NCBI GenBank assembly: GCA_963828735.1
Contig: CAWHFW010000005.1
Coordinates: forward strand, 1,696,001-1,760,000
DNA: 64,000 nucleotides
From: an uncultured Gemmatimonadales bacterium
GTDB taxonomy: Bacteria > Gemmatimonadota > Gemmatimonadetes > Gemmatimonadales > GWC2-71-9
Direction: 5' to 3'
Below are positions 32,700 to 47,388 of this stretch, piece after piece. The notes beneath the pieces are model-generated. The model did no database searches. It had not been told where the DNA came from and saw only the letters and a list, made by a program, of their open reading frames with translations. The position numbers were made by a program, and so were the translations under genes. Each line of letters opens with the position of its first letter. Position 1 is the first letter of the stretch.

Positions 32700-32810
32700 A
32701 ACGCCGACCCAAGCCCCGGCGCGCCAGGCTATCGCGGCTCCCCAGCTGCCACCGCCCACAAGAACTACCTCGAACGTGCGGCCGATCAGCGCCGCCAGAT
32801 CCCTGGTCAC
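32700..32810 (-). pseudogene. Degraded 5' relic of a second glpD-like gene
   Basis: MTRDLAALIGRTFEVVLVGGGSWGAAIAW aligns with the neighbouring GlpD N-terminus and continues as ARRGL in another frame. Confidence 0.7.
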
Positions 32811-33220
32811 GTGCTACTCCCGAATGCCTTGACGCGCGGCAGAGCGTGAGCGACGAACGCCGACGCCGCCAGGGTCTCAAGCACGCGACCCGCGAGCGGT
32901 ACGGTCGAGCTGCCCCTCAACGTGCTGCTCAGTGCGACCAACAGGATGCCGGCGTTGAGCACCCAGAATGTCGCCCATGGAAGCCACGCGTTGCCGCGCT
33001 CGCTCCCCGTGCGAAAGCGCGGCAGGATCCAGTACGCCACTCCAATGACCAGCTGCACCGTCCAGCCGAACAGCAGCACCTCAGCGTGGACCGGACGGAG
33101 CCATGTCACCCAGGGGCCGTCGGCCAGCTCACGCCCCGCGAGGAGCACGGCGCCGAGCGTGATACCGACGGCCAGATAGATGAGCGAGGTCCGGATGAGC
33201 CAGACGCTGAGTCGCGGCAG
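32807..33220 (-). CDS. NnrS/heme-copper-oxidase-like 4-TM membrane protein (paralog 2), probable CTG start
   Basis: (M)PRLSVWLIRTSLIYL...HAEVLLFGW..Q...GVAYWILP mirrors paralog 1. AAGGAG lies 6 nt before CTG 33220. Confidence 0.7.
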   Translation of the reverse strand: MPRLSVWLIRTSLIYLAVGITLGAVLLAGRELADGPWVTWLRPVHAEVLLFGWTVQLVIGVAYWILPRFRTGSERGNAWLPWATFWVLNAGILLVALSSTLRGSSTVPLAGRVLETLAASAFVAHALPRVKAFGSST

Positions 33221-33634
33221 CTAGCGCTCCTTGATCCGGGGCCAGGTATTGACGACGAAGCCCCACCCCGCGAGCAGCTGGAGCAGGGCGGACGCCGCCA
33301 GCACGCCTCCCGTGCTCTGACCGAGCGCGTGCAGCGGTTCGCCGGCGGCTCGAAGCAGGAGCCCGATGTTGAGCGATGCAAGCGTCACCCATCCGAGACG
33401 CTCGCTACCCCGAGGTCGCTCCGCGGAGTAGCGGGGAAACATCCAGTAGGCGACGCCGAAGATGACCTGGGTGATCCAGCCGACGACGAGCAGGTGGAGC
33501 CAGGTCGGATAGACGACCGCGACCACGGGATACTCGGCGCGGAGGTCCGGCGACTGGAGCAGGACGCCCAGCACCAGCGCGCCGCCAAGGTGAATCATGG
33601 CGGCGCGCAGGTACCAACGGGTCAGGGACGGCAC
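33221..33634 (-). CDS. NnrS/heme-copper-oxidase-like 4-TM membrane protein (paralog 1)
   Basis: MPSLTRWYLRAAMIHL...HLLVVGWITQVIFGVAYWMFP. Confidence 0.75.
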   Translation of the reverse strand: MPSLTRWYLRAAMIHLGGALVLGVLLQSPDLRAEYPVVAVVYPTWLHLLVVGWITQVIFGVAYWMFPRYSAERPRGSERLGWVTLASLNIGLLLRAAGEPLHALGQSTGGVLAASALLQLLAGWGFVVNTWPRIKER

Positions 33635-33640
33635 TTCAGA

Positions 33641-34699
33641 TCAAACGGTCGCCGGCTGCACCACGAGCGCCGTCACCATCCCGAACATCCCGTGCTCGGA
33701 TTCGGCGTGCGGCAGGATGTGGCAGTGGAAGGCCCAGGTGCCAGGGTTGGTGGCTTTCACCAGCACGTCCCACCGCTCGCCCGGCGCGATGTTGAGCGTG
33801 TCGCACTTCCACGGCGCCGGCTGGTCCCACCCGTCCTTGGCGATCACGGTCATGTGCATCCCGTGCAGGTGCATGGGGTGGATCAGCATCCCCTCGTTCA
33901 TGAACCGGATGCGCACGGTCTGGCCCATCTTGCAGACCACCGGCTCCGTGGCCGGAAAGCCCTTGCCGTTCAGTGTATAGCCGTGCGCGCCGTCGTTCAG
34001 CACCATCACGTAGTCCACGTCTGCCCGGTGCGCGGGGAGCGGCCGCTTCGGCTCGACGATGAACGCGCCCAGCAGCCCGTTGCCGACCTGGATCGCGGCG
34101 TTGTGATGCGAGTGATACATGTGCGAGCCGGCGTTGGGCACCGTGAACTCGTACGTGTAGCTCTCGCCCGGCTTGACCGGCGGCTGGGTGATGTACGGGA
34201 CCCCGTCCTGATCATTGGGCAGCTCGAGCCCATGGAAGTGGATCGACGTGGACTGTGAGAGCTTGTTGATCAGCTTCACGCGCACCCGATCGCCTTCCCG
34301 CACCCGGATCTGCGGCCCCGGCACCTGCCGGTTGTACGTCCACGCCCGGGCCTTCCGGCCCGGCTCGACTTCCCAGTCGATCTCCTCGGCGGAGAGCTCG
34401 TAGACCTTCACGCCTTTCTCGAGCCGCGGCTCGAGCAGCTGGTTGCCCTTGCCCTCGGTCTTGGCCGGAAACGCCTTTATTCCCTTCTCGTGCATGGCGT
34501 CCATCGCGTCGGCCTTCTGCCGAGGCGTGGACTCCGGCGGCGGGGCAGCCACCTTGGTGGTATCAGCCGGAGGGGCGGCGGCCTTGGTGTCGGCACATCC
34601 ACCCAGGCCGACCACAGCCGGGATGGCCACGGCGACGGCGCCCTTCTTCAGGAAGGCGCGGCGTGAAGTCGGATGGACCAGCGAGGAATGGTCGGACAC
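33641..34699 (-). CDS. Tat-exported two-domain multicopper oxidase (small-laccase type)
   Basis: SRRAFLK twin-arginine motif, LGGC lipobox, HFHG, MYHSH, HPMHLHG, HCHILPH....GM. Confidence 0.88.
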   Translation of the reverse strand: MSDHSSLVHPTSRRAFLKKGAVAVAIPAVVGLGGCADTKAAAPPADTTKVAAPPPESTPRQKADAMDAMHEKGIKAFPAKTEGKGNQLLEPRLEKGVKVYELSAEEIDWEVEPGRKARAWTYNRQVPGPQIRVREGDRVRVKLINKLSQSTSIHFHGLELPNDQDGVPYITQPPVKPGESYTYEFTVPNAGSHMYHSHHNAAIQVGNGLLGAFIVEPKRPLPAHRADVDYVMVLNDGAHGYTLNGKGFPATEPVVCKMGQTVRIRFMNEGMLIHPMHLHGMHMTVIAKDGWDQPAPWKCDTLNIAPGERWDVLVKATNPGTWAFHCHILPHAESEHGMFGMVTALVVQPATV

Positions 34700-34744: not shown

Positions 34745-34788
34745 AGTCTAGCGTGCTCTCCGTGAAGTCGGTGTGGGGGGATCCTGAA
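34745..34788 (-). promoter_or_regulatory. TTCA-repeat promoter of the two-domain MCO operon
   Basis: Minus strand: TTCA-N7-CCCA-N7-TTCA-N12-TAGACT. Confidence 0.6.
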
Positions 34789-34795
34789 GGTTTCT

Positions 34796-35797
34796 TCAGG
34801 CTCCGTGCGGAGTCAGCACCGCGGCGCCGAGCACCCGGCCCGACCGGACCCGATCCAGTGCGTCGTTCGCGGCGGCGAGCGGCATGGACTCGGTCGCGAT
34901 CTCGAGCGGGACCTCGGCCGCGATCCTGAGGAAGGTCTCCCCGTCGGCCCGGGTGAGGTTGGCGACCGAGCGCACCCGTCGCTCGCCCCAGAGCAGGTCG
35001 TACGAGAAGGAGGGGATCGGCGACATGTGAATGCCGGCGCAGACGACCGTGCCGCCCTTGTCGGTTGCCGAGAGGGCGGCCGGGACGAGCGCGCCCACGG
35101 GCGCGAAGATGATCGCGGCGTCGAGCGGCTCCGGGGGCCGCTCGTCGGAGCCACCCGCCCACTCGGCGCCGAGCTCGCGCGCGAAGCGCTGGCCGTCGGT
35201 GTCGCCTGGGCGGGTAAACGCGAAGACCCTCCGACCCTGGTGTCGCGCCACCTGCGTGATGATGTGCGCCGCCGCGCCGAAGCCGTAGATGCCGACGCGC
35301 TCGGCGTCACCGGTAGCGGCGAGCGAGCGGTAGCCGATGAGTCCGGCGCAGAGGAGCGGCGCCGCGTGCACCGCGTCGTAGGAGGAGGGAATCAGGAAGC
35401 AGTAGCGCTCGTCGGCCACGACGAACTCAGCGTAGCCGCCGTCGTGGTCATAGCCGGTGAAGCGGGCTCGGTCGCACAAATTCTCGCGCCCCGAGCGACA
35501 GAAGCGGCAGACGCCGCAGGTCCATCCGAGCCACGGCACGCCGACCAAGGTGCCCGGCTCGAAACGACGCGCGCCCTCGCCCGATCCCACAATCGCGCCC
35601 ACGATCTCATGACCCGGCACGAGCGGCAGCTTGGGGCGCGACAGCTCGCCGTCCACGATGTGGAGGTCGGTGCGGCAGACGGCGCACGCGCGCACCTCGA
35701 GCAACACCTGCCCCGGCCCGGGTTCCGGTCGGGGCACGTCGGTGATGTGGAGCGGTTGCCCGGGCGTGTGGAAGAGCGCGGCGCGCATGGTTGACAT
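34796..35797 (-). CDS. Zinc-dependent alcohol dehydrogenase (AdhP-like)
   Basis: CRTDLH, GHEIVG, CGVCRFC...ENLC, PLLCAGLIG, GIYGFGAAA. Confidence 0.93.
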   Translation of the reverse strand: MSTMRAALFHTPGQPLHITDVPRPEPGPGQVLLEVRACAVCRTDLHIVDGELSRPKLPLVPGHEIVGAIVGSGEGARRFEPGTLVGVPWLGWTCGVCRFCRSGRENLCDRARFTGYDHDGGYAEFVVADERYCFLIPSSYDAVHAAPLLCAGLIGYRSLAATGDAERVGIYGFGAAAHIITQVARHQGRRVFAFTRPGDTDGQRFARELGAEWAGGSDERPPEPLDAAIIFAPVGALVPAALSATDKGGTVVCAGIHMSPIPSFSYDLLWGERRVRSVANLTRADGETFLRIAAEVPLEIATESMPLAAANDALDRVRSGRVLGAAVLTPHGA

Positions 35798-35849
35798 GTG
35801 GGAAGATATCAGCAACCCTGCCACGCACCCGATCGGGGAGGAGATGGAC

Positions 35850-36329
35850 TCAGTCGCCTTGCGGGCCTGCCGGCAGGGCACCGGCGGCCGAGCGAATCTC
35901 ATCGTGGCGGATCTGTCCGCCGGACCAGGCGGTCCAGCCGATCAGCAACGAGGTTGCGGCGAGCGCCCCCCAGACAGCCCGCGGGAGCCAGGGTCCACTC
36001 CAGGCCTTGGCTCGAAGGGCAAGTGCGGCGGCCGCCAGGCCGCCCGTCACGAGCGCGGCCACCAGGCTCACGAGTGCCTGCTCCTCGTGGGCTTCGATGA
36101 GTGTCTTGGAAACCCACGGGGCGCGCTCGATCAGCTCCTCCGCCGGCTCACCGGTCAGGTAGATGAGCGCGGTCGCCGCTGCGAGCCCAATGACCAGCGT
36201 CAGAGACACGGTGGTCAATTCGCGGGAGCCGCGCAGGAGTCCAATCGTCAGCAGCAGCAGCAGGAGCGGCGTCCCGATCACCGGGACGTGATTCAGCATG
36301 AGATGAAGATGCGCGGCGTCGATGCCCAT
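35850..36329 (-). CDS. DUF2231-like heme-binding membrane protein
   Basis: HLHLMLNHVP, TGE.AEE, HEE, GGQIRH, 4 TM helices. Confidence 0.7.
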   Translation of the reverse strand: MGIDAAHLHLMLNHVPVIGTPLLLLLLTIGLLRGSRELTTVSLTLVIGLAAATALIYLTGEPAEELIERAPWVSKTLIEAHEEQALVSLVAALVTGGLAAAALALRAKAWSGPWLPRAVWGALAATSLLIGWTAWSGGQIRHDEIRSAAGALPAGPQGD

Positions 36330-36411
36330 GGGAGATCACCAGGTTCAGCCTCGAGTGGGGCGAGAGGAGATTGCCGTCCAACGGTGACGAAGCGGCAACC
36401 CCCTCGCATTT

Positions 36412-36813
36412 TCACAGCCTGCCGGTGGCGACCGCGCGGACAATGTCCGTCGTGGAGATGATGCCGACAACATGGTCGCCCTCGGCTACGAAGAGCCGGT
36501 GCACCTCGGCGTAGAGCATCTGGCGCGCGGCTTCACGAAGGTCTTCGCCCGGCGCGATGGTGAACGGGCGCGGAGTCATGATGTCCCGTACCGGCGTATT
36601 CTCCAACAGGGACTCGCGGGCGGCGCGATCATCTGCCTCGGCTTCCGCGGTCAGCACGTCGGTGGTCGAAAGGACGCCGATGACTCTTCCGGTGCCATCC
36701 ACCACCGGCATGCCCGAAATGTGCTCGTCCGCCAGAGCGACAATAGCCTCGGCGAGGCTGGCTTCGCTCGGTACCGACTTGACGTTGCGCTGCATGAGTT
36801 CGGCGACCGTCAT
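36412..36813 (-). CDS. CBS-domain protein
   Basis: GAGGA RBS, two CBS repeats (ISGMPVVD..GVLSTTD; VHRLFV..GIISTTD). Confidence 0.9.
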   Translation of the reverse strand: MTVAELMQRNVKSVPSEASLAEAIVALADEHISGMPVVDGTGRVIGVLSTTDVLTAEAEADDRAARESLLENTPVRDIMTPRPFTIAPGEDLREAARQMLYAEVHRLFVAEGDHVVGIISTTDIVRAVATGRL

Positions 36814-36840
36814 GGTATCCTCACGGTGGAGGTCACGCAC

Positions 36841-36884
36841 AACATGCGGTGGGACGGCTGAATCCAGCGTGAAGGACGCATGAA
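36841..36884 (-). promoter_or_regulatory. TTCA-repeat promoter of the CBS gene
   Basis: Minus strand: TTCA-N7-TTCA-N7-TTCA-N12-CATGTT. Confidence 0.7.
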
Positions 36885-36955
36885 ACGACCTTCCCAGATC
36901 CGCGCGCGGGATGACACCCCTCTTTCGAAACTCCCACTCGTCGAGGATCTGGGGC

Positions 36956-36982
36956 AACAAAAACCCGGGTGGGAACCCGGGC
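36956..36982 (-). terminator. Intrinsic terminator after hsp20
   Basis: Minus strand CCCGGGT-TCCC-ACCCGGG followed by TTTTTGTT. Confidence 0.7.
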
Positions 36983-37003
36983 TACTGAGGGGAGCAGTGG
37001 GAC

Positions 37004-37459
37004 TTACTTGATCAGGATCTTGGTCGCGGCCAGTGGCGTCTCCTTGGGGAGATGCAGCACCAGCAGGCCATCCCGATACTCGGCCGCCACCTTCTTCTCG
37101 GCCACCGGCTTGGACAGGCGGATCGTGCGGACAAACTTCCCGATCGCGCGCTCCTTCACCAGATAGCCTTCGCCCTCGAACTCTGGAGCGAACTCCCTCG
37201 TGCCGGTGATGATCAGCAACTCACCGGTGAGGTTGACGTCCAGGTTCTCCTTGTGGATGCCGGGCACCTCGAGGCGGACCACATACTCCGTGGGGGTCTC
37301 GATCATGTCCATCACCGGGATCCACTCCGCCCCCGTGGTCTCGAACGGGAATGGCGGCACCGGCTCCGTCAGGAACCGCGGGACCAGCAGTCGATCGAAC
37401 ACCCGATCGAACTCCTCGCCCAGCTTCCCCACCATGGGGTTCCGCAGTGCAACTCGCAT
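37004..37459 (-). CDS. Hsp20/alpha-crystallin small heat-shock protein
   Basis: AGGAGG RBS, EVPGIHKE, ERAIGKFVRTIRL, AEYRDGLLVLHLPK. Confidence 0.92.
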   Translation of the reverse strand: MRVALRNPMVGKLGEEFDRVFDRLLVPRFLTEPVPPFPFETTGAEWIPVMDMIETPTEYVVRLEVPGIHKENLDVNLTGELLIITGTREFAPEFEGEGYLVKERAIGKFVRTIRLSKPVAEKKVAAEYRDGLLVLHLPKETPLAATKILIK

Positions 37460-37487
37460 AACACCTCCTGGTTTGAACTGCGTCGCC

Positions 37488-37531
37488 AACATAGCACTCG
37501 CCCCATGATGCCAGGATGAAACCCGCGTCAA
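37488..37531 (-). promoter_or_regulatory. TTCA-repeat promoter of hsp20
   Basis: Minus strand: TTGA-N7-TTCA-N7-ATCA-N12-TATGTT. Confidence 0.65.
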
Positions 37532-37582
37532 GAAGCCCTCATTCGTCGCTCACCTGCTCATTTCGTGTCCTTGGTGGGATTC

Positions 37583-37626
37583 TTCCCACCCGATTCACCG
37601 TTTCTTAAGGGTGACGGCCCTATGAT
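37583..37626 (+). promoter_or_regulatory. TTCA-repeat promoter of the 37655/USP operon
   Basis: TTCC-N7-TTCA-N7-TTAA-N12-TATGAT. Confidence 0.65.
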
Positions 37627-37654
37627 GGAGCCCAGACCACACCGGGAGGACGCC

Positions 37655-38149
37655 ATGTCCGCCGTCGCATCGCCCGTCTATGTCGGATCCACTGAGGAAA
37701 CCCTCGACGCCGTCCTCGCGCCCACTCACGATACGTGGGTCAACGAGGCGCGGCACCTGCTGGGCTCGGCGTCGGCGCCCGGCGCGCCGGATTGGAAACG
37801 GTGGACGACGGTGCGCTGGCTCAACGATCAGTTCCTGCGCTGGTTCCTGGCCGAGTGGGCGCTCCTGAACGAGCTCCGGCCGCACCTGACGATCCGCGAA
37901 GACGAGATGATCGGCGCGGGCGAAGAGCAGATCGCCCAGCTCCGCGTGGCGCTCGACCGGGTGGCCCGGCGTCGTGGCAGCGCGGCCGAATTCACCGCGC
38001 TGGCGCAGAGATTTCTGCAGGCGCTCGAAATGTGGTGCGCCGAATGTGAGCTGGCGGCGCGCCGGATCCACTGCCGGTACCTGTCGCGCGATGCGCGACG
38101 GCTGCTCGAGGACGTGGAGGCCGCGTCGGGCGTACAGCCGCACATGTGA
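37655..38149 (+). CDS. Hypothetical helical protein, hemerythrin-like paralog A
   Basis: GGAGG RBS. Shares H..W..EAR, RW..VR.L.D.F and DR..RRRG motifs with 39401-39850. Confidence 0.7.
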   Translation: MSAVASPVYVGSTEETLDAVLAPTHDTWVNEARHLLGSASAPGAPDWKRWTTVRWLNDQFLRWFLAEWALLNELRPHLTIREDEMIGAGEEQIAQLRVALDRVARRRGSAAEFTALAQRFLQALEMWCAECELAARRIHCRYLSRDARRLLEDVEAASGVQPHM

Positions 38150-38193
38150 AACGCGCCGAAGCGGTGCGCCGGCACTCAACGTCGAGGTGATTC

Positions 38194-39198
38194 ATGTCGA
38201 TCAACGCATCGCAGTTTCGCTCCATCCTGGTGCCGCTGGACGGCTCGCCGCTCGCGGAGCGGGCGCTCGCCGTCGCGGCCAGGATCGCGCAGGCGGGAAA
38301 CGGGAGTCTCGCCCTGGCGCTGGTGCACGAGCCCCCGCCGATCCCGTTCGATAAGCCGGACCCTGCGCTGGTGGCCTCCGGAGAGGCGGCCGTGGCGCGC
38401 GCCGAGGAGACCTATCTCACGGGCATCGAGACGCGGCTCCGCGGAGACGGCACCCCGGTGTCCTCCGCGACGATTCTGACCGGCGAAGTCGGACCGTGCC
38501 TCGCCGATCAGGCGCGGTCGCTCGGTGTCGACCTGGTCGTGATGCCGACACATGGCCGGGGCGGCGTGCAACGCCTCTGGCTGGGAAGCGTCGCCGACTA
38601 TCTCGTGCGTCATCTCGACGTTCCGGTGCTGGTGTTGCGGGCGGGCGAGGTCGCCGATCGCGTGAACGCGACGTCAGCCGCTACGCAGCTGCTCGTGCCA
38701 CTCGATGGTTCACCGCTGGCCGAAGAGGCGCTGGCTCCGGCGGCGGAGCTCGCGCGGCTCTCCGACCTCGAGCTCAGCTTGCTGCAGGTCGTCCGTCCCG
38801 TCGCGTTCGTCACCGAGCCCGGCCTCACGCTCCCGACTGCCTACGACCGGGAGCTCACGGACAGCGTGGTGGATCAGGCCAGGGACTACGTTCGGGATCT
38901 GGTCGAGGACCTGCGGGCGCGCGGTTTCCGGGCGACGGGTTCCGCGGTGATCGGATGGAACCCGGTCGACACGATTCTCGAGATCGCGCGCCCCGAGCAG
39001 GTCGCCATGGTGGCGCTGGCGACTCATGGGCGGGGCGGAATGACGCGCCTCGCGCTCGGCAGCGTGGCCGACGAGCTGATCCGGGCCGCGCGCGTCCCGG
39101 TGCTGGTCATGCGGCCGACACTCATCGGGCGCGCGGGCGCCGAAAGCCCCGCAGTCGCAACCGGCGCAGCTGAGCCGCTGCCTCTCCGTTCTCGATGA
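38194..39198 (+). CDS. Universal stress protein (tandem USP domains)
   Basis: Two ILVPLDGSPLAE and THGRGG..R..LGSVA motifs. Confidence 0.93.
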   Translation: MSINASQFRSILVPLDGSPLAERALAVAARIAQAGNGSLALALVHEPPPIPFDKPDPALVASGEAAVARAEETYLTGIETRLRGDGTPVSSATILTGEVGPCLADQARSLGVDLVVMPTHGRGGVQRLWLGSVADYLVRHLDVPVLVLRAGEVADRVNATSAATQLLVPLDGSPLAEEALAPAAELARLSDLELSLLQVVRPVAFVTEPGLTLPTAYDRELTDSVVDQARDYVRDLVEDLRARGFRATGSAVIGWNPVDTILEIARPEQVAMVALATHGRGGMTRLALGSVADELIRAARVPVLVMRPTLIGRAGAESPAVATGAAEPLPLRSR

Positions 39199-39328
39199 CA
39201 CCAATGGGGCCGTCCAAGTGGACGGCCCCATATTGACCCTGCCTCCCGTCTTGCGGGTACGCTTTTCTCGTGCACCGCTTTCGCATCCTTGCGGGGGATC
39301 GCTTCACGCGGGCGCACGCGAAGGCTCC

Positions 39329-39372
39329 TTCTCCGTCTCTTCACCCTTCCTTCATCCTCGCGAGTGTAGTCT
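39329..39372 (+). promoter_or_regulatory. TTCA-repeat promoter of CDS 39401
   Basis: TTCT-N7-TTCA-N7-TTCA-N12-TAGTCT. Confidence 0.7.
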
Positions 39373-39400
39373 CGAATCGTCACTCGAGCCGAGCGAACCA

Positions 39401-39850
39401 ATGACCGTACCGAACACGACATCCTTCCCGGGTGCGGAGCTCTCCGGCTTCCACCGCTTGTGGATCACCGAGGCCCGTCGCTTCCTCGCTCCGGCGCTCG
39501 TATCAGGTGCCGACTTCTGGACGCGATGGGCCGCGGTCCGGTATCTGTCCGACGATTTCCGGGACCGCCACGCCACGGAGCTCGTGCTGATGCATCGGCT
39601 CCGGCCTGTGCTCGCCGAGGACGTCGCGGCACGACTCGTCACTGGTGGCGATGGGGTCTTCCACCTCCGGCTGGAGGCGGATCGTATCGGACGCCGCAGG
39701 GGAACGGCCAAGGAATTCGCCGAAGGCGTAGGGGCGCTGCTGGAGCGGCTGGAAACGTGGCTCGAGGAGATCGATCGGGCCGCCGCCGAGCTCTCTCCGG
39801 AATCCCCGATGCCGGCACCGCCGACACCGCTCCACGCCGGGACGCCATGA
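39401..39850 (+). CDS. Hypothetical helical protein, hemerythrin-like paralog B
   Basis: Paralogous to 37655-38149. Confidence 0.7.
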   Translation: MTVPNTTSFPGAELSGFHRLWITEARRFLAPALVSGADFWTRWAAVRYLSDDFRDRHATELVLMHRLRPVLAEDVAARLVTGGDGVFHLRLEADRIGRRRGTAKEFAEGVGALLERLETWLEEIDRAAAELSPESPMPAPPTPLHAGTP

Positions 39851-39895
39851 CACGCACACCACATCCTTCCGCTCGACCCTCGTGCCGCTCGACGG

Positions 39896-41815
39896 TTAAG
39901 CGCTCACCGAGTTGGCGCTGCCCTCGGCCAGCTCGCCGGCGACCGCACCGGCTTCTACTCCGGGGCTGCTCGACGATGGTTGCTCCTCGAAGGTAGCCCG
40001 GAGCGCGTTGAGGATCACCGCCACGTCGATCGCCTCTTGTAGCAGCGCGCCCGCGATCGGCGGGATGTAGCCGAACGCCGCCGCGATCATCGCGAGACCG
40101 CTCAGCCCGAGCCCCGCCCAGATGCTCTGCCGCGCCAGCCGAAGCGTGCGGCGGCTGATGGCGATCGCCTGGCGGAGCAGGGTCGGGTCGTCAGCCAGGA
40201 GGACGGCGTCCGCTGCCTCCGCGCTGATGCCACCGCCGCCGCTGGCGAGCGCGACACCCACCGTGGCGCTGCTGAGCGCCGGCGCGTCGTTGGTACCGTC
40301 GCCCACCATCAGCACCCGCTCACCTTCTTTCACCAGCCGCTGGATGTAGGCGACTTTCTGTTCCGGCAGCAGGTCACCGTGAGCCTCCTCGATTCCGACG
40401 GCGTGCGCGACCGCCGAGGCGTTGGCCTGCTCGTCGCCGGAGAGGAGCAGCGTGCGGCGCACGCCGAGCCGGCGGAGGTCAGCCATGAATCGACCGACAC
40501 CCGGCCGGAGTCTGTCGGCGTACTCCACCACCCCGGCACCGTGTCCATCCACGGCGACGTAGGCGCGGAGCCCGGGCCCGCCGTTCCCGCCCAACGCCGA
40601 GTGCAAGCCCGCCTCGGCTTGGGGTGCCTGGCGGGTAACGAACGCCCAGCCGCCCACGTTGATCCTGCGACCGTCGACCTCGCCGGTCACGCCCTCGCCG
40701 GGTGTCTCGATGATCTCTCGCGCCTCCGGTAGCTCGATGCCCCGTGCCACCGCCTCGTCCACGAGCGTGCGTGCGAGCAGGTGGCCGGAGCCGCGCTCGA
40801 CCGCTCCGGCGAGTTGCAACACCTCCATGGGCGTGAACGGCGCGGTCGCGAGGACGCGCGCGACCTGCGGACGGCCGATCGTCAGCGTACCGGTCTTGTC
40901 GAACACGGCCACCGTGATCCGCGAGAGCTGCTCGAGCGCCGTGCCGTGCCGCACGATGATCCCGTGGCGGGCCGCGCAGTTGATTCCGCCCACGATCGCG
41001 ACGGGCGTGGCGAGAATGAGCGGGCACGGCGTGGCGACGACCAGCACCGCGAGCAGGCGCGTTGGATCCCGCGTGACGAAATACACCGCGGCGGCCACCA
41101 GCAGGGTGAGGGGCGTGAACCAGACGGCATAGCGGTCGGCCAGCCGCTGCAGCGGGGACTTGCTCTCCTGTGCCGTGCGCACCAGCTCGACGATGCGCGC
41201 ATACTGACTCTCCCGCGCCGGTGCGGCAGCGCGCACGGTCAGCGGCCCATCCAGGTTGAGGCTCCCGCTCAGGAGTCGGGTCCCGGCCGTGGCCGTCAGG
41301 GGGAGCGGCTCGCCAGTGAGCCGCGCCGTGTCCACGTGCGAGCGGCCCTCGAGCACGACCACGTCGCACGGCACCAGCTCCCCGGGCCGGACCAGGAGCT
41401 CGTCGCCCACGGCCACGGCGTCCACCCCTACGTCCTCGAGGCCGGCGGCGGCGATTCGATGCGCCAAACGCGGCGCGGCAGCCTCCAGGTCGTGCACTGC
41501 CCGCGAAGCACGACCCTCGGCGTAGCGCTCGAGCGCCTCGCCTCCCGTCTGCATGAGGACCACGATGAGGCCCGCCAGGGGCTGGCCGAGGAGAAGGGCG
41601 GTGACGATGGCGAGCATCGCCACCAGATCGGCGGCGAATCGGCCGGCGGCGACGCCGCGGAGCGTCCGCCAGACGACCGGGAGTCCGGTCGCGGCCAGCC
41701 CGATCGCCCACGCGAGAGTCGCCGCCTCGGGTGAGACCGCGACACGGATGATCAGGCCGAGAACAATCGCGAGCAACGCAGCCGCGGGCAGGCGGACCCC
41801 ACCGCGACGGGGCAT
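39896..41815 (-). CDS. Heavy-metal P1B-type ATPase, P1B-5 subgroup
   Basis: LTGE, TPCP, DKTGTLT, MVGDGTNDAPAL, QEAID (QExxD). Confidence 0.9.
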   Translation of the reverse strand: MPRRGGVRLPAAALLAIVLGLIIRVAVSPEAATLAWAIGLAATGLPVVWRTLRGVAAGRFAADLVAMLAIVTALLLGQPLAGLIVVLMQTGGEALERYAEGRASRAVHDLEAAAPRLAHRIAAAGLEDVGVDAVAVGDELLVRPGELVPCDVVVLEGRSHVDTARLTGEPLPLTATAGTRLLSGSLNLDGPLTVRAAAPARESQYARIVELVRTAQESKSPLQRLADRYAVWFTPLTLLVAAAVYFVTRDPTRLLAVLVVATPCPLILATPVAIVGGINCAARHGIIVRHGTALEQLSRITVAVFDKTGTLTIGRPQVARVLATAPFTPMEVLQLAGAVERGSGHLLARTLVDEAVARGIELPEAREIIETPGEGVTGEVDGRRINVGGWAFVTRQAPQAEAGLHSALGGNGGPGLRAYVAVDGHGAGVVEYADRLRPGVGRFMADLRRLGVRRTLLLSGDEQANASAVAHAVGIEEAHGDLLPEQKVAYIQRLVKEGERVLMVGDGTNDAPALSSATVGVALASGGGGISAEAADAVLLADDPTLLRQAIAISRRTLRLARQSIWAGLGLSGLAMIAAAFGYIPPIAGALLQEAIDVAVILNALRATFEEQPSSSSPGVEAGAVAGELAEGSANSVSA

Positions 41816-42513
41816 CAGCGGGCGGGCGAGATCTCCGCGTCGCTGCCCCGACGCAAGCTGAAGCCCACGCCGCGGACGGTCGTGAGCAGCGGCTCGCCCG
41901 CCGCCTGCATCAGCTTCCTGCGGAGGTTGCCCACGTGCACGTCCACCACGTTGCTCTCCGGATCGAAGTGCATGTCCCAGACCTTCTCCAGGAGCGTGGT
42001 GCGGCGGACGACCTCCTCGGGGCGCAGCAGGAAGTACTCGAGGAGCTGGAATTCCTTCGGGGTGAGGTCGAGGCGCTCGTCGTTGACGGCGGCGACGTGG
42101 CGCAGCCGGTCGAGCGTGAGCGGGCCGTACCGGAGCGTCTCGAGGCGCTCCGCGCCGCCGCGGCGGTGGAGCGCCCGGATGCGCGCCAGCAGCTCGTCGA
42201 AGCGGAACGGCTTCGACAGATAGTCGTCGGCCCCGGCATCGAGCCCCCGCACCACGTCTTCCACCGCATCCCGCGAGGTGAGCATCAGGATGGGCGTGTT
42301 GCGCCCCTCCCGCCGGAGCTCGGTCGCGACCTGGAATCCGTTCTTCTTCGGCAGCACGATGTCGAGCAGGATCACGTCGTACTCGTAGACGTGGGCCAGC
42401 ATGGTGGCCTCCTCGCCGTCTGGCGCGACGTCCACCACGTAGCCCTCTTCCTTCAATCCCTGCTCGATGAATCCCGCGACCTTCCGGTCGTCTTCCACGA
42501 CGAGGATTTTCAT
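41815..42513 (-). CDS. OmpR/PhoB-family response regulator (CusR/CopR-like)
   Basis: ILVVEDD, LLDIVLP, GADDYLSKPF, LTPKEF, SNVVDVHVGNLRRKL, TVRGVGF. Confidence 0.95.
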   Translation of the reverse strand: MKILVVEDDRKVAGFIEQGLKEEGYVVDVAPDGEEATMLAHVYEYDVILLDIVLPKKNGFQVATELRREGRNTPILMLTSRDAVEDVVRGLDAGADDYLSKPFRFDELLARIRALHRRGGAERLETLRYGPLTLDRLRHVAAVNDERLDLTPKEFQLLEYFLLRPEEVVRRTTLLEKVWDMHFDPESNVVDVHVGNLRRKLMQAAGEPLLTTVRGVGFSLRRGSDAEISPAR

Positions 42514-42519
42514 GGGCTC

Positions 42520-42563
42520 AATGTACGGGCGGCCATCTGAACGCGGCCGGAATCGTTCGTGAA
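42520..42563 (-). promoter_or_regulatory. TTCA-repeat promoter of the response regulator (putative autoregulation, leaderless)
   Basis: Minus strand: TTCA-N7-TTCC-N7-TTCA-N12-TACATT-N6-ATG. Confidence 0.7.
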
Positions 42564-42570
42564 GGGTTCT

Positions 42571-43812
42571 TCATGATTGAGGTGTCGCCGGGAGCTCCAG
42601 CACGAACTGGCCTCCCTGACCCGGGCGGCATACGGCGCGGAGCTCCCCACCCAGCAGGCGCGCCAGCCGCCGGGAGAGCGGGAGGCCAAGACCAGCGCCG
42701 CGGCTGTCACCGCCCGCCTTGGTAACGTAGATGTCGAAGATCCGCTCCAGCTCGGCCTCGGGCACGCCCGGCCCTTCGTCCTCCACCACGTACTCGATCT
42801 TCGCCCCGCGGTCGGTGATCCGCACGCGGACGGTGCTGGCTTGCGCCGTGTGACGGATCGCGTTGCCCAGCAGGTTCACCAGGATCTGCTCCAATCGACT
42901 GCTGTCGGTGTCGCAGCTCGGCAGGCCGGCGGGCGCTTGCAGCTCCAGCCTGACCTGGCGGGATTCGGCCGCGGGCGTCACGCGGCCGAAGGCGTGCCGA
43001 ACGACAGAGGCGGGCTCGACCGACCGGATCACGGGATTGAGCCGGTCCTCGTCGAGCCGACTGAGGTCGAGCAGATCGTTGATGAGGGCGATGGCGTGCT
43101 GCGCGGAGTCGAGCACCTCGAACGCCGCCCGCGGCACCGTGGCGGGGTCCTTCTTGCGGACCAGCATCTCGGACCAGCCGAAGACCGCCGCGAGCGCGTT
43201 CCGGAGCTCGTGGTTCACCATGGCGAAGAACCGCTCGCGGGTCCGATGCAGCGCCTGCACCTCTTCCAGCAACCGAGCGCTCTCCTCGTGCAGGCGGGCG
43301 TTCTGGACGGCCGCCGCCGTGATGGCCGCGAGCAGCACCGCCATGTGCTCGTCCCGGTCGGTGAACGCCGGCTCATCGATCTTCTCGGTGAGGTACAGGT
43401 TTCCGAAGACTCCCCGCCGGCCCACGATCGGCACGCCCAGGAACGAGCGCATCGGCGGGTGATGGGGTGGAAAGCCGTAGGAATCGGGATGCCGGGTCAG
43501 ATCGGGGAGCCGGATCGGACGGGCCTCGCGGATCACCAGGCCCAGGATGCCGTGCCCGCGCGGTAGTGGCCCGATCAGCTCCCGCTCCTCGTCGCTGATA
43601 CCGTGGGTGGTGAAGCTCTCGAGCACGCGGCCGTCGGGCGCCAGCACGCCGATTGCCGCGTAGTGCGCACCGATCACCTCGGCCGCGACCTGAACGACGC
43701 GCTGCAGCACCCCGTCCAGCGACAGCTCGGTGATGAGGGCCGACGTGGCGATGATCAGGTGCTCGAGCCGCGGGTCGGCGCCGAGATCTGTGCGGGTCGC
43801 TGAATCGGTCAT
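42571..43812 (-). CDS. GAF-domain sensor histidine kinase with DosS/DevS-like heme GAF
   Basis: PRGHGILG, SYGFPPHHPPMRSFLGVPI, GNLYLTEK. HisKA NHELRN, NLLGNAIRH, DEGPG, GAGLGL. No TM helix. Confidence 0.88.
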   Translation of the reverse strand: MTDSATRTDLGADPRLEHLIIATSALITELSLDGVLQRVVQVAAEVIGAHYAAIGVLAPDGRVLESFTTHGISDEERELIGPLPRGHGILGLVIREARPIRLPDLTRHPDSYGFPPHHPPMRSFLGVPIVGRRGVFGNLYLTEKIDEPAFTDRDEHMAVLLAAITAAAVQNARLHEESARLLEEVQALHRTRERFFAMVNHELRNALAAVFGWSEMLVRKKDPATVPRAAFEVLDSAQHAIALINDLLDLSRLDEDRLNPVIRSVEPASVVRHAFGRVTPAAESRQVRLELQAPAGLPSCDTDSSRLEQILVNLLGNAIRHTAQASTVRVRITDRGAKIEYVVEDEGPGVPEAELERIFDIYVTKAGGDSRGAGLGLPLSRRLARLLGGELRAVCRPGQGGQFVLELPATPQS

Positions 43813-43859
43813 GAGAGAAAGGTACGGCCGGCCCCCGACTGCGGAACCCCATCGGGAGA

Positions 43860-43903
43860 TTCCGAGGGGTTTCATCTTTTCTTCACCCCCGCTCCGCTAG
43901 CCT
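43860..43903 (+). promoter_or_regulatory. TTCA-repeat promoter of the second USP
   Basis: TTCC-N7-TTCA-N7-TTCA-N12-TAGCCT. Confidence 0.7.
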
Positions 43904-43911
43904 GTTCCACC

Positions 43912-44733
43912 ATGAATGGCTCCTTGAATGGCTCCTTGCATGTCCGGCGGGTGATGGCCGCGACGGACGAGTCGGGCGCGGGTCGGCAGGCGGTCGCCAC
44001 CGCCCTGCAGGTCGCTCGGCGGGCCTCCGCGCACGCCACGATCCTCCGGGTCCTGCCGTTCGACGGCACCGCGTCGCGGGGTGCCGCCGAACAGCTCCAG
44101 CGTTGGGTCGAGTCGGATCTGCCCTCGCCGCTGCCGCCGCTCCCGATCGAATACGCCGTGGGCTACGGCCTTCCAGGAATCGAGATCCCCCGCGCCGCCG
44201 AGCGCATGCGCGCGGATCTGCTCGTACTCGGCCGGAACCAGCGCTCGCAGGCCATGCGCCTGCTGCTGGGCGACACCGCAGACGCAGTCGCCCGGCGGAG
44301 CCGAATCCCGTGCCTGTTCGTGCCGGCATACTCGGGGCGTACGCGCCGGGTGCTGGTTGCGGTGGACGGCTCCGGGCGGGGGACGGCCGTCCTGCGGGTC
44401 GCGAACGACTTCGCGGGGCAGCTGGGCGCCGACCTGCGGGTTCTGACCGTCGAGCGGGTCCACGCCGGCGAGCCTGCCGAGCTCGCGGCGGGTGTCCCGG
44501 CGACACGCAGCACGAGCATCCAGGCGGACGTGAACCAAACGCTCGCGCGCGGGCTGGACGTGCGCCGCGGCGACGCGGCGGCGGAGATCCTCGCGGCCGT
44601 CGAGGAGCAGGCCCCTGATGTGCTCGTGATCGGCTGCCACCGCGGCGGGCCGGCGGGCGTGATCGAGGCTGGCAGCACCGCCCGGAAGGTGATCCACCAG
44701 GCGCCGTGCGCGGTGCTCACGGTGCCGTTGTAG
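43912..44733 (+). CDS. Universal stress protein (tandem USP domains)
   Basis: VMAATDES, LLGDTADAV, VLVAVDGS, GSTARKVIHQAPCAVLTVP. Confidence 0.88.
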   Translation: MNGSLNGSLHVRRVMAATDESGAGRQAVATALQVARRASAHATILRVLPFDGTASRGAAEQLQRWVESDLPSPLPPLPIEYAVGYGLPGIEIPRAAERMRADLLVLGRNQRSQAMRLLLGDTADAVARRSRIPCLFVPAYSGRTRRVLVAVDGSGRGTAVLRVANDFAGQLGADLRVLTVERVHAGEPAELAAGVPATRSTSIQADVNQTLARGLDVRRGDAAAEILAAVEEQAPDVLVIGCHRGGPAGVIEAGSTARKVIHQAPCAVLTVPL

Positions 44734-44745
44734 CCGGGCGCTGCC

Positions 44746-45141
44746 CTAGGTCCCCCTCAAGAGATCTTCGACCGTCCGATCGCGGAAGAACGCGGTGACG
44801 CGCTCGCTCACCGACTTCCACTCGTGGTGCGCAGGGCAGGGGTTCCGGTCGCTGCACTGCGGGCGGCCGAGCAGGCAGCGACGCTCGGCCGAGATCCCGT
44901 CGAACGGCGCGACGACCCGGAGCAGCTTGAGCCGGTCCGGTGGGACCGCCAGCCGGAACCCGCCGCCCTTGCCGCGAGTGGAGAGCAGCACCCCCTCGCG
45001 GGCCAGCCGGTGCAGGGTCTTCGACAGGTAGTTGCGGGGGATTTGAAGCCGCTGGGCGATCTCGTCGGCCCGGGCGGCTTCGTCGCGGTCGGCCAGGAAC
45101 AGGACCGTCCGGAGGGCGTATTCAGCGGTCTGGGACAGCAC
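44746..45141 (-). CDS. Rrf2 family transcriptional regulator with Cys3-His motif
   Basis: LSQTAEYALR, YLSKTL, STRGKGGGFRL, CLLGRPQCSDRNPCPAH. GTG start at 45141 preferred. Confidence 0.92.
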   Translation of the reverse strand: MLSQTAEYALRTVLFLADRDEAARADEIAQRLQIPRNYLSKTLHRLAREGVLLSTRGKGGGFRLAVPPDRLKLLRVVAPFDGISAERRCLLGRPQCSDRNPCPAHHEWKSVSERVTAFFRDRTVEDLLRGT

Positions 45142-45190
45142 GGTAGTCTCGGGGTCGGAATGGGAACGATCCTTTCCCCGGAAATTAATC

Positions 45191-45219
45191 ATATCCTCAT
45201 GATGATATCAAGATACTTG
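45191..45219. promoter_or_regulatory. AT-rich palindromes, candidate Rrf2 operator
   Basis: ATATCCTCATGATGATAT (18-bp palindrome, one mismatched pair) adjacent to CAAG-ATA-CTTG. Confidence 0.5.
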
Positions 45220-45268
45220 TCGCGACCCTCCTCGCAGGTTCGAGGGTCACGGCGGGTGTGAAGAAAGG

Positions 45269-45312
45269 CTCACGGCCGGTTCACGGTCCGCCGTGCCCGG
45301 CCCTCGTAGGTT
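45269..45312 (+). promoter_or_regulatory. Weaker TTCA-repeat promoter of nosZ
   Basis: CTCA-N7-TTCA-N7-CCGT-N12-TAGGTT, same register as the other seven promoters. Confidence 0.45.
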
Positions 45313-45351: not shown

Positions 45352-47388
45352 ATGTCGCGCCGCACCTTTCGCATTCCCGGTTCGCTCGCGCTGCTTGCCG
45401 GCAGCGCCATCCTCGCCACAGGCTGCGGCTCGGCGAATGCCACGCGGCTCGGCGAGGCGAGCGACGCTGCCCAGCGGGTCTACGTCGCCCCTGGCAAATA
45501 CGACGAGTTCTACGCCTTCATGTCTGGCGGGTTCGACGGCCAGGTCGGGGTGTACGGCCTGCCGTCCGGCCGGCTCCTCAAGCACGTGCCGGTCTTCTCG
45601 CAGAGCACGGAGAACGGTTGGGGCTACAGCGAGCAGACGAAGCCCATGCTGATGACCAGCTACGGCTTCGTGCCGTGGGACGACGCCCACCATCCGCAGC
45701 TCAGCCAGACCGACGGCGTACCCGACGGCCGCTGGTTGTTCATCAACGGCAACAACACGCCGCGCATCGCCCGGCTCGAGCTCACGAAGTTCGAGACCGA
45801 GGAGATCCTCGAGATTCCCAACAGCGCCGGCAACCACAGCTCGCCGTTCGTCACCGAGAACAACGAGTACGTCGTCGCGGGTACCCGGTTCAGCGTGCCG
45901 GCGCCGCAGCGGGACGTGTCGATCGACGAGTACAAGGAGGCCTTCGCGGGCACGCTCACCTTCGCTCGGGTCGACAGCGCGACCGGCCACATGACGATCG
46001 CGTTCCAGATCCGGCTGCCGGCGTTCGACTACGATCTCTCGCACGCGGGCAAGGGGCCGTCGCACGGCTGGTCCTTCTTCACCAGCTACAACAGCGAGGA
46101 AGGGAACACCAAGCTCGAGGTGAACGCCTCCCAGAAGGACAAGGACTACATCGCGGCGATCAACTGGAAGCAGGCCGAGCAATGCGTCGCGCAGGGCAAG
46201 GCCACGACCGAGCCGGCCCGCTATGCCCACAACGTGATGGGTGGGGACGGGATCGCGCGGACCGAGTGGGGCACCAGCGTCAAGGTGCTGACGCCCGCCG
46301 CGTGCCCGGGACTCGCCTACTTCCTGCCGACGCCCAAGAGCCCGCACGGCGTGGACGTGGATCCGACCGGCGAGTACATCGTGGCGGGCGGCAAGCTCGC
46401 GACGGTGATCCCCGTGCACAGCTTCTCGAAGATGCAGAAGGCGATCGCTGACCGGGCGTTCGCGGGCGAGGACCACGGCATCCCGGTGCTCAAGTACGAG
46501 GCCACGGTGGCGGGCGAAGTGCAGAACCCCGGGCTGGGCCCGCTCCACACCGAGTTCGACGGGAAGGGCAACGCCTACACCTCGATGTTCCTGAGCTCCG
46601 AGATCGTGAAGTGGAGCCTCAAGACGTTCAAGGTGCTCGACCGCGCACCGACCTACTACTCGATCGGCCACCTGATGATCCCGGGCGGCGACAGCCGGAA
46701 GCCATGGGGCAAGTACGTCCTCGCCCTCAACAAGATCACCAAGGACCGCTACCTGCCGACCGGCCCGGAGCTGGCGCAGTCGGCGCAGCTCTACGACATC
46801 AGCGGCGACCGGATGAAGCTGCTGTCCGACTTCCCGACCATCGGCGAGCCGCACTACGCCCAGGCGCTGCCGGCGGCGATGATCAAGGACCGCCAGCTCA
46901 AGATGTATTCGCTCAAGGAGAACCAGGACCCGTGGGCGGCCAAGAACGAAAAGGTGACGCGGGTGGAGCGGAAGGGCAGCGTCGTGCACGTGGTGATGAC
47001 CTCGGTCCGCAGCCACTTCATGCCCGACAAGATCGAGGGAATCCAGGTGGGCGACTCGGTCTACTTCCACCTCACCAACCTCGAGCAGGACTGGGACGTG
47101 CCCCACGGCTTCGCGGTGCTGGGCAACAACAACTCCGAGCTGCTGATGATGCCGGGCCAGACGCGCACGTTGGCGTGGGTGCCGAGCCGGCCCGGGATCT
47201 ATCCCTTCTACTGCACCGACTTCTGCTCGGCGCTGCACCAGGAGATGCAAGGCTACATCCGGGTGTCCCCGAAGGGCGCGAAGGTCGCGGTCAAGTGGAA
47301 CAGTCCGAGCTACCACGAGGCCGAGGGTGAGCACGAGGAGCACGAAGTCGCTCGGGCAGGACGAGACCATGAACGCGACAGCAATTGA
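45352..47388 (+). CDS. nosZ: Nitrous-oxide reductase, clade II (Sec/lipoprotein type)
   Basis: CuZ ligands DAHH, GNH, PHG, GPLH, IGH, EPH. CuA HGF...CTDFCSALHQEM. YVAPG.YDEFYAF.SGGF N-terminus and LATGC lipobox. Confidence 0.97.
   Translation: MSRRTFRIPGSLALLAGSAILATGCGSANATRLGEASDAAQRVYVAPGKYDEFYAFMSGGFDGQVGVYGLPSGRLLKHVPVFSQSTENGWGYSEQTKPMLMTSYGFVPWDDAHHPQLSQTDGVPDGRWLFINGNNTPRIARLELTKFETEEILEIPNSAGNHSSPFVTENNEYVVAGTRFSVPAPQRDVSIDEYKEAFAGTLTFARVDSATGHMTIAFQIRLPAFDYDLSHAGKGPSHGWSFFTSYNSEEGNTKLEVNASQKDKDYIAAINWKQAEQCVAQGKATTEPARYAHNVMGGDGIARTEWGTSVKVLTPAACPGLAYFLPTPKSPHGVDVDPTGEYIVAGGKLATVIPVHSFSKMQKAIADRAFAGEDHGIPVLKYEATVAGEVQNPGLGPLHTEFDGKGNAYTSMFLSSEIVKWSLKTFKVLDRAPTYYSIGHLMIPGGDSRKPWGKYVLALNKITKDRYLPTGPELAQSAQLYDISGDRMKLLSDFPTIGEPHYAQALPAAMIKDRQLKMYSLKENQDPWAAKNEKVTRVERKGSVVHVVMTSVRSHFMPDKIEGIQVGDSVYFHLTNLEQDWDVPHGFAVLGNNNSELLMMPGQTRTLAWVPSRPGIYPFYCTDFCSALHQEMQGYIRVSPKGAKVAVKWNSPSYHEAEGEHEEHEVARAGRDHERDSN

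Follow-up and report, generated by a model that had tools for sequence, protein, structure and literature searches.

In Mycobacterium tuberculosis, the DosR regulon comprises alpha-crystallin, universal stress proteins (USPs), Acg-type oxidoreductases, a CBS protein and a P-type ATPase. In promoters dependent on PhoB of Escherichia coli, the pho box replaces the -35 element at a fixed distance from the -10 hexamer. Gemmatimonadota are among the common carriers of clade II nosZ in soils, and we know of few model organisms in which regulators of clade II nosZ have been described. PhoP of Streptomyces binds direct repeats of 11 nt, and the number of repeat units varies (PMC2275107). Here, we describe a promoter element made of TTCA boxes in a 64,000-nt stretch of DNA (referred to as the window; G000:C5:1696001-1760000) from the genome of an uncultured Gemmatimonadales bacterium (G000; 4.78 Mb, 69% G+C, 7 contigs). 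The window contains an island of genes with an OmpR-family response regulator, a sensor histidine kinase and a nosZ gene (Table 1). The TTCA boxes form a genuine promoter signal that is kept in related genomes and, on balance, we consider it likely that they are bound by the phosphorylated form of this regulator, which would be activated by the DosT-like kinase with its predicted heme GAF domain when O2 falls or when NO or CO rises.

A preliminary description of the window had listed eight sites of 44 nt, each with three 4-mers at a period of 11 bp, followed by 12 nt and a hexamer, and the coordinates and strands of all of them were verified. The full element, present at about 40 promoters of the genome, is TGAAG-N5-TTCA-N7-TTCA-N7-TTCA-N12-TAnnnT, and it includes a further box (box 0) that was absent from that description: an inverted TGAA, usually TGAAG, located 10 nt 5' of box 1, with which it gives TGAAG-N4-CTTCA. 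A position weight matrix (PWM; fixed spacing, ungapped) made from the eight sites was scanned outside the 34-46 kb region of the window, over 672,760 bp of intergenic and 4.09 Mb of coding DNA, with 20 dinucleotide shuffles as the control. Genes were called with a crude home-made caller (4217 genes); start codons and distances are approximate, and the term intergenic rests on these calls. In the intergenic DNA, 16 matches exceeded 18 bits, compared with a shuffle mean of 0.2 (maximum 1), and 8 matches exceeded 25 bits, compared with a shuffle mean of 0; no match above 15 bits was found in the coding DNA. After iteration, the PWM yielded 44 sites with a score of more than 16 bits, of which 40 exceeded 22 bits; all were intergenic. 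Of these 40, 34 lie at most 260 nt upstream of a gene on the same strand, 15 of the 40 being at 7-33 nt. The genome-wide motif search proposed in the preliminary description, run here with the PWM, thus found the sites in front of downstream genes and not spread over unrelated ones; the promoters that carry the motif mostly head stress, redox and copper-enzyme genes.

The arrangement of the boxes was also examined by plain word counts. On the two strands of the genome together, TTCA-N7-TTCA was counted 53 times, compared with 15-25 times for neighbouring spacings that are not multiples of 3, and the triple TTCA at the 11-bp period occurs 4 times. In the 44 aligned sites, TTCA stands at positions 0, 11 and 22, that is, as direct repeats spaced by roughly one turn of the helix. 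When up to one mismatch per box was tolerated, box 0 is present in 27 of the 40 sites, box 1 in 36, box 2 in 34 and box 3 in 26, and the -10 hexamer has both A2 and T6 in 30 of them. A chance origin of the motif is excluded.

The assignment of the -10 hexamer has an internal check at the regulator gene, whose ATG lies 6 nt after the hexamer. When the best match to TTGACA was sought at spacers of 16-18 nt, 34 of the 40 sites reached at most 2 of the 6 positions, whereas about 25 of 40 would be expected for random sequence; a TG-extended -10 was found at 2 of the 40 sites. Box 3 is separated from the -10 by 12 nt and box 2 by 23 nt and, since neither distance fits a spacer of 16-18 nt, neither box can act as a -35 element. 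Because of the same mismatch, an alternative sigma-factor promoter was rejected. The earlier proposal that the repeats take the place of the -35 element at a fixed distance from the -10 was therefore borne out, both by the 12 nt between box 3 and TAnnnT and by the poor -35 in 34 of the 40 sites, and the site-bearing promoters are predicted to be activator-dependent, of the PhoB type. A regulator that binds the boxes but mainly represses, blocking the -35 and spacer regions so that the genes are on while the kinase is inactive, would account for boxes that span about -60 to -25 and overlap the position of RNA polymerase. We hold this to be quite improbable, since the 34 promoters lacking a usable -35 should be weak without an activator, and the distance from the boxes to the -10 is constant to the base pair among about 40 promoters and between genera, a constancy that class II activation typically shows and that repression would not need.

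The element shares with the PhoB and PhoP systems an OmpR-family regulator, direct repeats one turn apart, the replacement of the -35 and a variable number of units. It differs from them in its predicted signal and in its regulon, in a pst locus that lacks boxes, in the extra inverted upstream box and in that three or four boxes are usual. Could the boxes nevertheless be PHO boxes of a phosphate regulon, like the GTTCACC-type 11-nt repeats of Streptomyces PhoP? The repeat core and the 11-nt period equal the direct repeat units of that protein (PMC2275107), and one site is flanked by genes for a sulfatase and a phosphodiesterase. The targets, however, are stress and redox genes and not genes for phosphate scavenging. 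In the 10 kb around the two pstS genes, which have an OmpR-family regulator/kinase pair of their own, the best PWM score was 5.0 bits, and PHO boxes were rejected as extremely improbable.

The most likely reader of the boxes is the response regulator encoded in the island, for which binding in the phosphorylated state is predicted. Of 29 distinct loci with an ortholog of the regulator gene, 27 have a site directly 5' of it. When the 29 upstream regions were aligned at the ATG, the only conserved columns were TGAAG, CTTCA, TT(C), T(T)CA and the -10, and the spacers varied. The gap between the -10 and the ATG was 6-7 nt in 27 of the 29 loci, and therefore a leaderless mRNA starting at the ATG is predicted; at one locus (L051) the leader would have 30 nt. 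A stretch of the recognition helix, LLEKVWDMHFDPESNVVDVHVGNLRRKL, is invariant in 13 aligned orthologs of at least 74% identity, and two homologs of 65% identity differ in the recognition helix and have no site. No site was found within 5 kb of the other 5 OmpR-family regulator genes of the genome. The autoregulation suggested in the preliminary description is thus supported by the regulator's own upstream site across its orthologs, and may be taken as predicted. The best NCBIfam matches of the regulator were cztR_silR_copR TIGR01387 (232 bits, cut-off 279) and NF041734 (213 bits, cut-off 250); since both scores are under the curated cut-offs, the regulator is not a member of either family. 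It resembles CopR/CusR/HprR and RppA inasmuch as these are its best-scoring curated families, but its partner kinase is cytoplasmic and GAF-based, unlike the periplasmic metal sensors of CopR/CusR systems. The boxes of CusR/HprR are inverted repeats, which would fit the box 0/box 1 palindrome; a literature search for CusR/HprR boxes found nothing.

The kinase gene lies upstream of the regulator gene. Residues 52-199 of its product match the heme GAF-A domain of DosT (2vzw) with an E-value of 2.6e-45, and DevS/DosS (2w3d and others) with about 4e-35. The stretches GFPPHHPPMRSFLGVP and FGNLYLTEK, which we take to hold the proximal heme histidine and the distal tyrosine, are retained in the GAF domain. 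This domain is therefore predicted to be a heme gas sensor similar to GAF-A of DosT/DevS. Relatives of the kinase, of about 413 amino acids, were found in more than 120 metagenome clusters, and all 120 among the matches listed had the architecture of one GAF plus HisKA; the database names of such proteins are 'GAF domain-containing sensor histidine kinase [Gemmatimonadales]' or, given automatically, 'DevS'. Because the relatives have about 413 residues, a start at 43812 was favoured over one at 43875. A search of the genome for a second DosT-like GAF domain found none.

We then compared the abundance of the motif with the presence of the regulator, counting matches to TTCA-N7-TTCA-N7-TTCA with at most one mismatch and using the reversed pattern as the control. 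In genome G000, 15 of 15 matches to this pattern were matrix-defined sites. Eighteen genus-mates with the regulator had 17, 10, 4, 9, 2, 8, 6, 25, 20, 3, 17, 8, 9, 6, 10, 18, 2 and 23 matches, and six genus-mates without it had 0, 2, 1, 7, 0 and 1, with 0-6 matches to the reversed pattern; a DosT-like GAF, sought in 5 of these 6 genomes, was not found. The comparison was extended to 150 further genomes of the family, from 78 genera, in which the regulator was called present at E <= 1e-95. It was present in 121 of the 150 genomes (plus 4 with fragments) and in 71 of the 78 genera. The median number of matches was 12 in the 121 genomes with the regulator and 3 in the 29 in which it was not detected, and the control mean was 1.1 in both groups. 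Four high outliers among the 29, with 13, 25, 30 and 34 matches, all hold fragments of the regulator (77-93% identity), and the remaining 25 have 0-9 matches. Motif abundance therefore follows regulator presence across the 150 family genomes.

Co-occurrence of this kind might also arise if the boxes were read by another transcription factor of the same accessory module, for instance a reader of the TGAAG-N4-CTTCA palindrome, the OmpR-family regulator being merely one of its targets. Together, boxes 0 and 1 make up a palindrome of 14 bp, such as dimeric helix-turn-helix factors read. Moreover, the targets and the regulator are gained and lost together, so that another factor of the module could fit the co-occurrence, which is unable to separate linked genes, and G017 has 7 matches although neither the regulator nor the kinase was found in it (93% completeness). 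However, the strongest information in the element lies in the three direct repeats with their exact 11-bp period, which are the signature of OmpR/PhoB-type regulators and not a palindrome, and box 0 is the weakest part. In addition, the site stands directly upstream of the regulator gene at nearly all loci, and the island encodes no further regulator except an Rrf2 protein, beside whose gene there is a different, AT-rich element. Another reader is, in our view, improbable.

Several further observations weigh against binding of the boxes by a gas-controlled OmpR-family regulator. Upstream of the regulator gene, no site is present in L035 (77% identity), none that is clear in L056 and a degenerate one in L058. 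The conservation of box 0 at the regulator promoter is confounded, because its TGAA (window positions 42570-42573, minus strand) overlaps the kinase gene, TGA being the stop codon, so that coding and regulatory constraints coincide; in several regulator orthologs, the stop is TAA and box 0 reads TAAAG or TAAGG. Three genomes (G006, G012 and G021) have the regulator but only 2-3 matches, no more than 2 were counted in 7 of the 121 regulator-bearing genomes of the family, and four family genomes without a detected regulator have 6-9, where the looser search for fragments covered only the four of the 29 with the most pattern matches. Related genomes are also not independent samples. The kinase, with its single GAF and HisKA core, is unlike DosS/T, so that gas gating need not match that of these proteins. 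Finally, the support comes from comparative genomics, from which binding, signal and transcription starts are inferred.

The following mechanism is proposed. The heme GAF kinase would turn active when O2 falls or when NO or CO binds, and would phosphorylate the OmpR-family regulator. Dimers or oligomers of the regulator would then sit on boxes one helical turn apart, on one face of the DNA, with the boxes at about -60, -50, -39 and -28 if transcription starts 7 nt past the -10. The bound regulator would take over the role of the -35 contact and bring in the housekeeping RNA polymerase, in the manner of class II activators of the PhoB type. It would amplify its own synthesis, together with that of the P1B ATPase, through an internal leaderless promoter in which the stop codon of the kinase gene is part of box 0. 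The output would be a dormancy-like set of proteins comprising Hsp20, at least four USPs, the CBS pair, an Acg-family oxidoreductase, three four-helix-bundle paralogs, Kelch proteins, multicopper oxidases and OmpW. A weaker three-box site would extend the induction to the clade II nos operon, probably jointly with the neighbouring Rrf2 regulator.

This nos site had been called degenerate in the preliminary description, and nosZ a possible member of the regulon, and both points are supported. Box 3 is truly missing and box 1 reads CTCA, so that the site scores 27.8 bits versus 33-43 bits for strong sites, which also counts against the extension of the circuit to nosZ. The lack of box 3 is conserved: the form with boxes 0, 1 and 2 is present upstream of 5 of 5 close nosZ orthologs that share synteny with the regulator (84-88% identity) and have diverged flanks, and it heads 5 of 5 operons with a second type of nosZ (46-49% identity) in genus-mates, which gives 10 of 10 nos loci for the genus. 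In a sister family where the regulator has no ortholog, 3 of 3 nosZ loci lack it. The nosZ site of G013 appears to fit better if a spacer of 13 nt is assumed. Between nosZ and the Rrf2 gene there is an AT-rich, partly palindromic element (45183-45219), of which G013 (L129) has a nearly identical copy between diverged flanks; it is probably the Rrf2 operator, and its position beside nosZ suggests a second input there, possibly with the Rrf2 regulator responding to NO. Nothing points to N2O itself as a signal. The circuit and regulon could thus be as described while nosZ is no functional member and is controlled by the Rrf2 regulator or others, a view that the imperfect site and the AT-rich palindromic element favour. 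Given the distribution of the three-box form over the nos loci with and without the regulator, and its persistence between diverged flanks, we consider this unlikely.

In one genus-mate (G007), overlapping sites on both strands were observed between nosZ and a divergent glycerol-3-phosphate dehydrogenase gene (L160:13003-13096), with one TGAAG-N4-CTTCA palindrome in common. The palindromic half could there serve two divergent promoters.

The gene set had been called DosR-like in the preliminary description. This was borne out by the presence of Hsp20 alpha-crystallin, several USPs, a CBS-pair protein and a P-type ATPase together with a regulator predicted to be autoregulated, and was strengthened by the DosT-type GAF in the kinase and by an Acg-family flavin mononucleotide (FMN) oxidoreductase among the targets. 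The differences from the mycobacterial system are that the kinase has one GAF and not two (GAF-A plus GAF-B) and HisKA PF00512 instead of HisKA_3, that an OmpR-family regulator takes the place of one from the NarL/LuxR family, and that the site consists of TTCA boxes at an 11-bp period and not of the palindromic DosR box. Moreover, the phylum is Gemmatimonadota, and the regulon also includes nosZ, multicopper oxidases and Kelch proteins. The comparison supports the interpretation of the circuit as a DosS/T-like hypoxia/NO system that was presumably rewired to act through an OmpR-family regulator, with clade II nosZ as an added target. In agreement with the preliminary description, to which no account of such a regulon was known, a full-text literature search of limited coverage found no description of the circuit.

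A more general reading applies to most genera of this large, mostly uncultured soil family of Gemmatimonadales. One rewired circuit, in which a heme sensor domain of the DosT type for O2/NO is combined with a HisKA kinase and with a regulator of the OmpR type, would set both entry into a dormancy-like state and expression of the clade II N2O reductase; the N2O sink of the group would be set by a heme gas sensor and be readable from a promoter code, and an ancient exchange would account for the sensor domain and the parts of the regulon that the group has in common with Actinobacteria, the output having been re-invented. We give this reading an even chance. If it is true, the N2O sink capacity of an abundant soil group depends on a heme gas sensor. 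The locus would also be a case of modular rewiring of a stress programme, in which protein families of the DosR type are found in another phylum under a different regulator family and DNA site. It offers a hypothesis that is testable and was obtained from sequence alone, with a sensor, a regulator, a DNA code, about 40 target promoters and a conserved nos site at 10 of 10 nos loci of the genus.

Conservation of the sites was also seen at other targets. Homologs of the Acg-family oxidoreductase had a site directly upstream in 10 of 12 loci, and one further locus was cut by a contig end; Acg was found only in genomes with the regulator, plus G040. In 6 syntenic islands of genus-mates, sites were kept at the regulator in 6 of 6 (two of them weak), at USP2 in 5 of 6, at the CBS gene in 2, at the paralog family and USP genes in 3 and at nosZ in 4. 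The site 5' of the CBS gene was kept in G004 and G020, and sites 5' of the protein family of paralog A in G007 and G001. Table 1 lists the features of the island and the targets elsewhere in the genome. Domain labels were assigned with Pfam and NCBIfam, structural matches with a profile search of the PDB and folds were compared with Foldseek; Pfam agrees with the gene labels given earlier, namely the two-domain multicopper oxidase (MCO), the CBS pair, Hsp20, the tandem USP, the OmpR-family regulator, the USP and nosZ.

Table 1. Genes and TTCA-box sites of the island in the window, and further targets in genome G000. Site rows give boxes 1 to 3 and the -10 hexamer unless written out in full.
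Feature	Position	Strand	Details or evidence
Two-domain MCO gene	33641-34699	-	Pfam
Two-domain MCO promoter site, TTCA/CCCA/TTCA, TAGACT, box 0 TGAAG	34745..34788	-	sequence and PWM
CBS operon promoter site, TTCA x3, CATGTT	36841..36884	-	sequence and PWM
Hsp20, alpha-crystallin family	37004..37459	-	Pfam
hsp20 promoter site, TTGA/TTCA/ATCA, TATGTT	37488..37531	-	41.5 bits
Paralog A-tandem USP operon promoter site, TTCC/TTCA/TTAA, TATGAT	37583..37626	+	sequence and PWM
Paralog A (164 aa, four-helix bundle) and tandem USP (38194-39198)	37655..39198	+	Pfam for USP
Paralog B promoter site, TTCT/TTCA/TTCA, TAGTCT; gene 39401-39850	39329..39372	+	43.1 bits
P1B heavy-metal P-type ATPase, between regulator and paralog B	39896..41815	-	TIGR01525, 508 bits
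OmpR-family response regulator, REC and Trans_reg_C, predicted box binder	41815..42513	-	PF00072 5.3e-31, PF00486 3.2e-25
Autoregulatory promoter (predicted), TGAA(g)-N6-TTCA/TTCC/TTCA-N12-TACATT, 6 nt, ATG	42520..42573	-	in 57-bp kinase-regulator spacer
Sensor histidine kinase: about 50 aa, one GAF, HisKA PF00512, HATPase_c	42571..43812	-	Pfam
USP2 promoter site, TTCC/TTCA/TTCA, TAGCCT; ATG 8 nt past -10	43860..43903	+	sequence and PWM
USP2, universal stress protein	43912..44733	+	Pfam
Rrf2-family regulator, divergent from nosZ	44746..45192	-	Pfam/NCBIfam
nosZ promoter site, TGAAG-N5-CTCA-N7-TTCA, no box 3, TAGGTT	45259..45312	+	27.8 bits
Clade II-type nosZ, then nosD, nosF, nosY (48018-50778)	45352..47388	+	Pfam
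Target: Acg-family FMN oxidoreductase	elsewhere in genome		NF047509 252 bits, cut-off 199
Target: another USP	elsewhere in genome		
Target: third member of paralog A/B family	L004:11715-12206		
Targets: four or five paralogous Kelch-repeat proteins, own site each	L001:2480-3580, L008:3214-4080, L008:5692-6763, L011:3804-4871		
Targets: 627-aa multicopper oxidase; OmpW; DUF302 protein	elsewhere in genome		
Targets: flavodoxin-like operon; ArsA-type ATPase operon; ScdA_N/cupin operon	elsewhere in genome		
Target: CheB-methylesterase-only protein, no receiver domain	G000:C5:697659-698297 (L004:7660-8298)		starts 7 nt past -10; predicted leaderless by geometry
Targets: sulfatase; several proteins without family	elsewhere in genome		

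The start of the P1B ATPase gene overlaps the stop of the regulator gene, and so the two are probably co-transcribed; the ATPase was found 3' of the regulator in 4 of 6 syntenic loci. Its product has TPC before DKTGT and no HMA (N-terminal metal-binding) domain, which presumably points to the P1B-5 type rather than to a copper pump. The CBS site probably drives the CBS gene (36412-36813), a gene for a 159-amino-acid membrane protein (35850-36329) and a zinc-type alcohol dehydrogenase gene (34796-35788).

The three paralogs, paralog A (37655-38149), paralog B and the one elsewhere in the genome, have 164, 149 and 163 amino acids, respectively, and 37-45% identity, and each stands behind a matrix-defined site (29-43 bits). 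The paralog A/B family is small and comprises 112 representative clusters; H25, W28 and W50 are invariant. No match to Pfam or NCBIfam was obtained for the paralog A family even at an E-value of 5, nor any PDB match by profile. A structural model of paralog A is a four-helix bundle (predicted local distance difference test score 93.6), for which Foldseek gave only generic helical bundles, the best with an E-value of 0.044; a hemerythrin-like protein appeared at rank 33 with an E-value of 1.1. An Atlas lead (score 0.87) to hemerythrin was unsupported, as only one histidine is invariant in 42 sequences.

Six RNA runs contain small shares of the region and, in the four that were examined, parts of hsp20, of the USP genes and of the CBS gene are represented among the contigs. 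One contig from an RNA library covers 36999-37434 in hsp20, which is a weak hint only. Such contigs attest to presence in soil RNA libraries; they carry no starts, strands or levels and are silent on promoters.

Some minor features were observed beside these genes. USP2 begins (43912-43940) with a 12-nt tandem duplication, ATGAATGGCTCCTTG AATGGCTCCTTG, which gives two possible in-frame starts just past the predicted transcription start. One Kelch gene adjoins a gene for a hybrid kinase with an ethylene-receptor-like N-terminal domain (ETR1_N, L001:300-2345). Two small open reading frames (ORFs) that follow the two-domain MCO gene (33221-33634 and 32807-33148) have weak matches to pieces of cytochrome oxidase subunit I (COX1). 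A small COX1-like ORF is likewise found near an MCO-like gene downstream of a TTCA-box site at L012:2452-2883, as in the window, and homologs of the small COX1-like ORFs follow a TTCA-box site in G011 (L163:6039-6827).

In a Longimicrobium metagenome-assembled genome, a variant of the element, TGAAC-N5-GTAA-N7-GTCA-N7-TTCA-N12-TAGCTT or TATCTT, occurs twice (L059:853-910 and 2941-2998) near a regulator homolog of 53% identity, a hint that a second class of the phylum may have a similar regulon of altered specificity.

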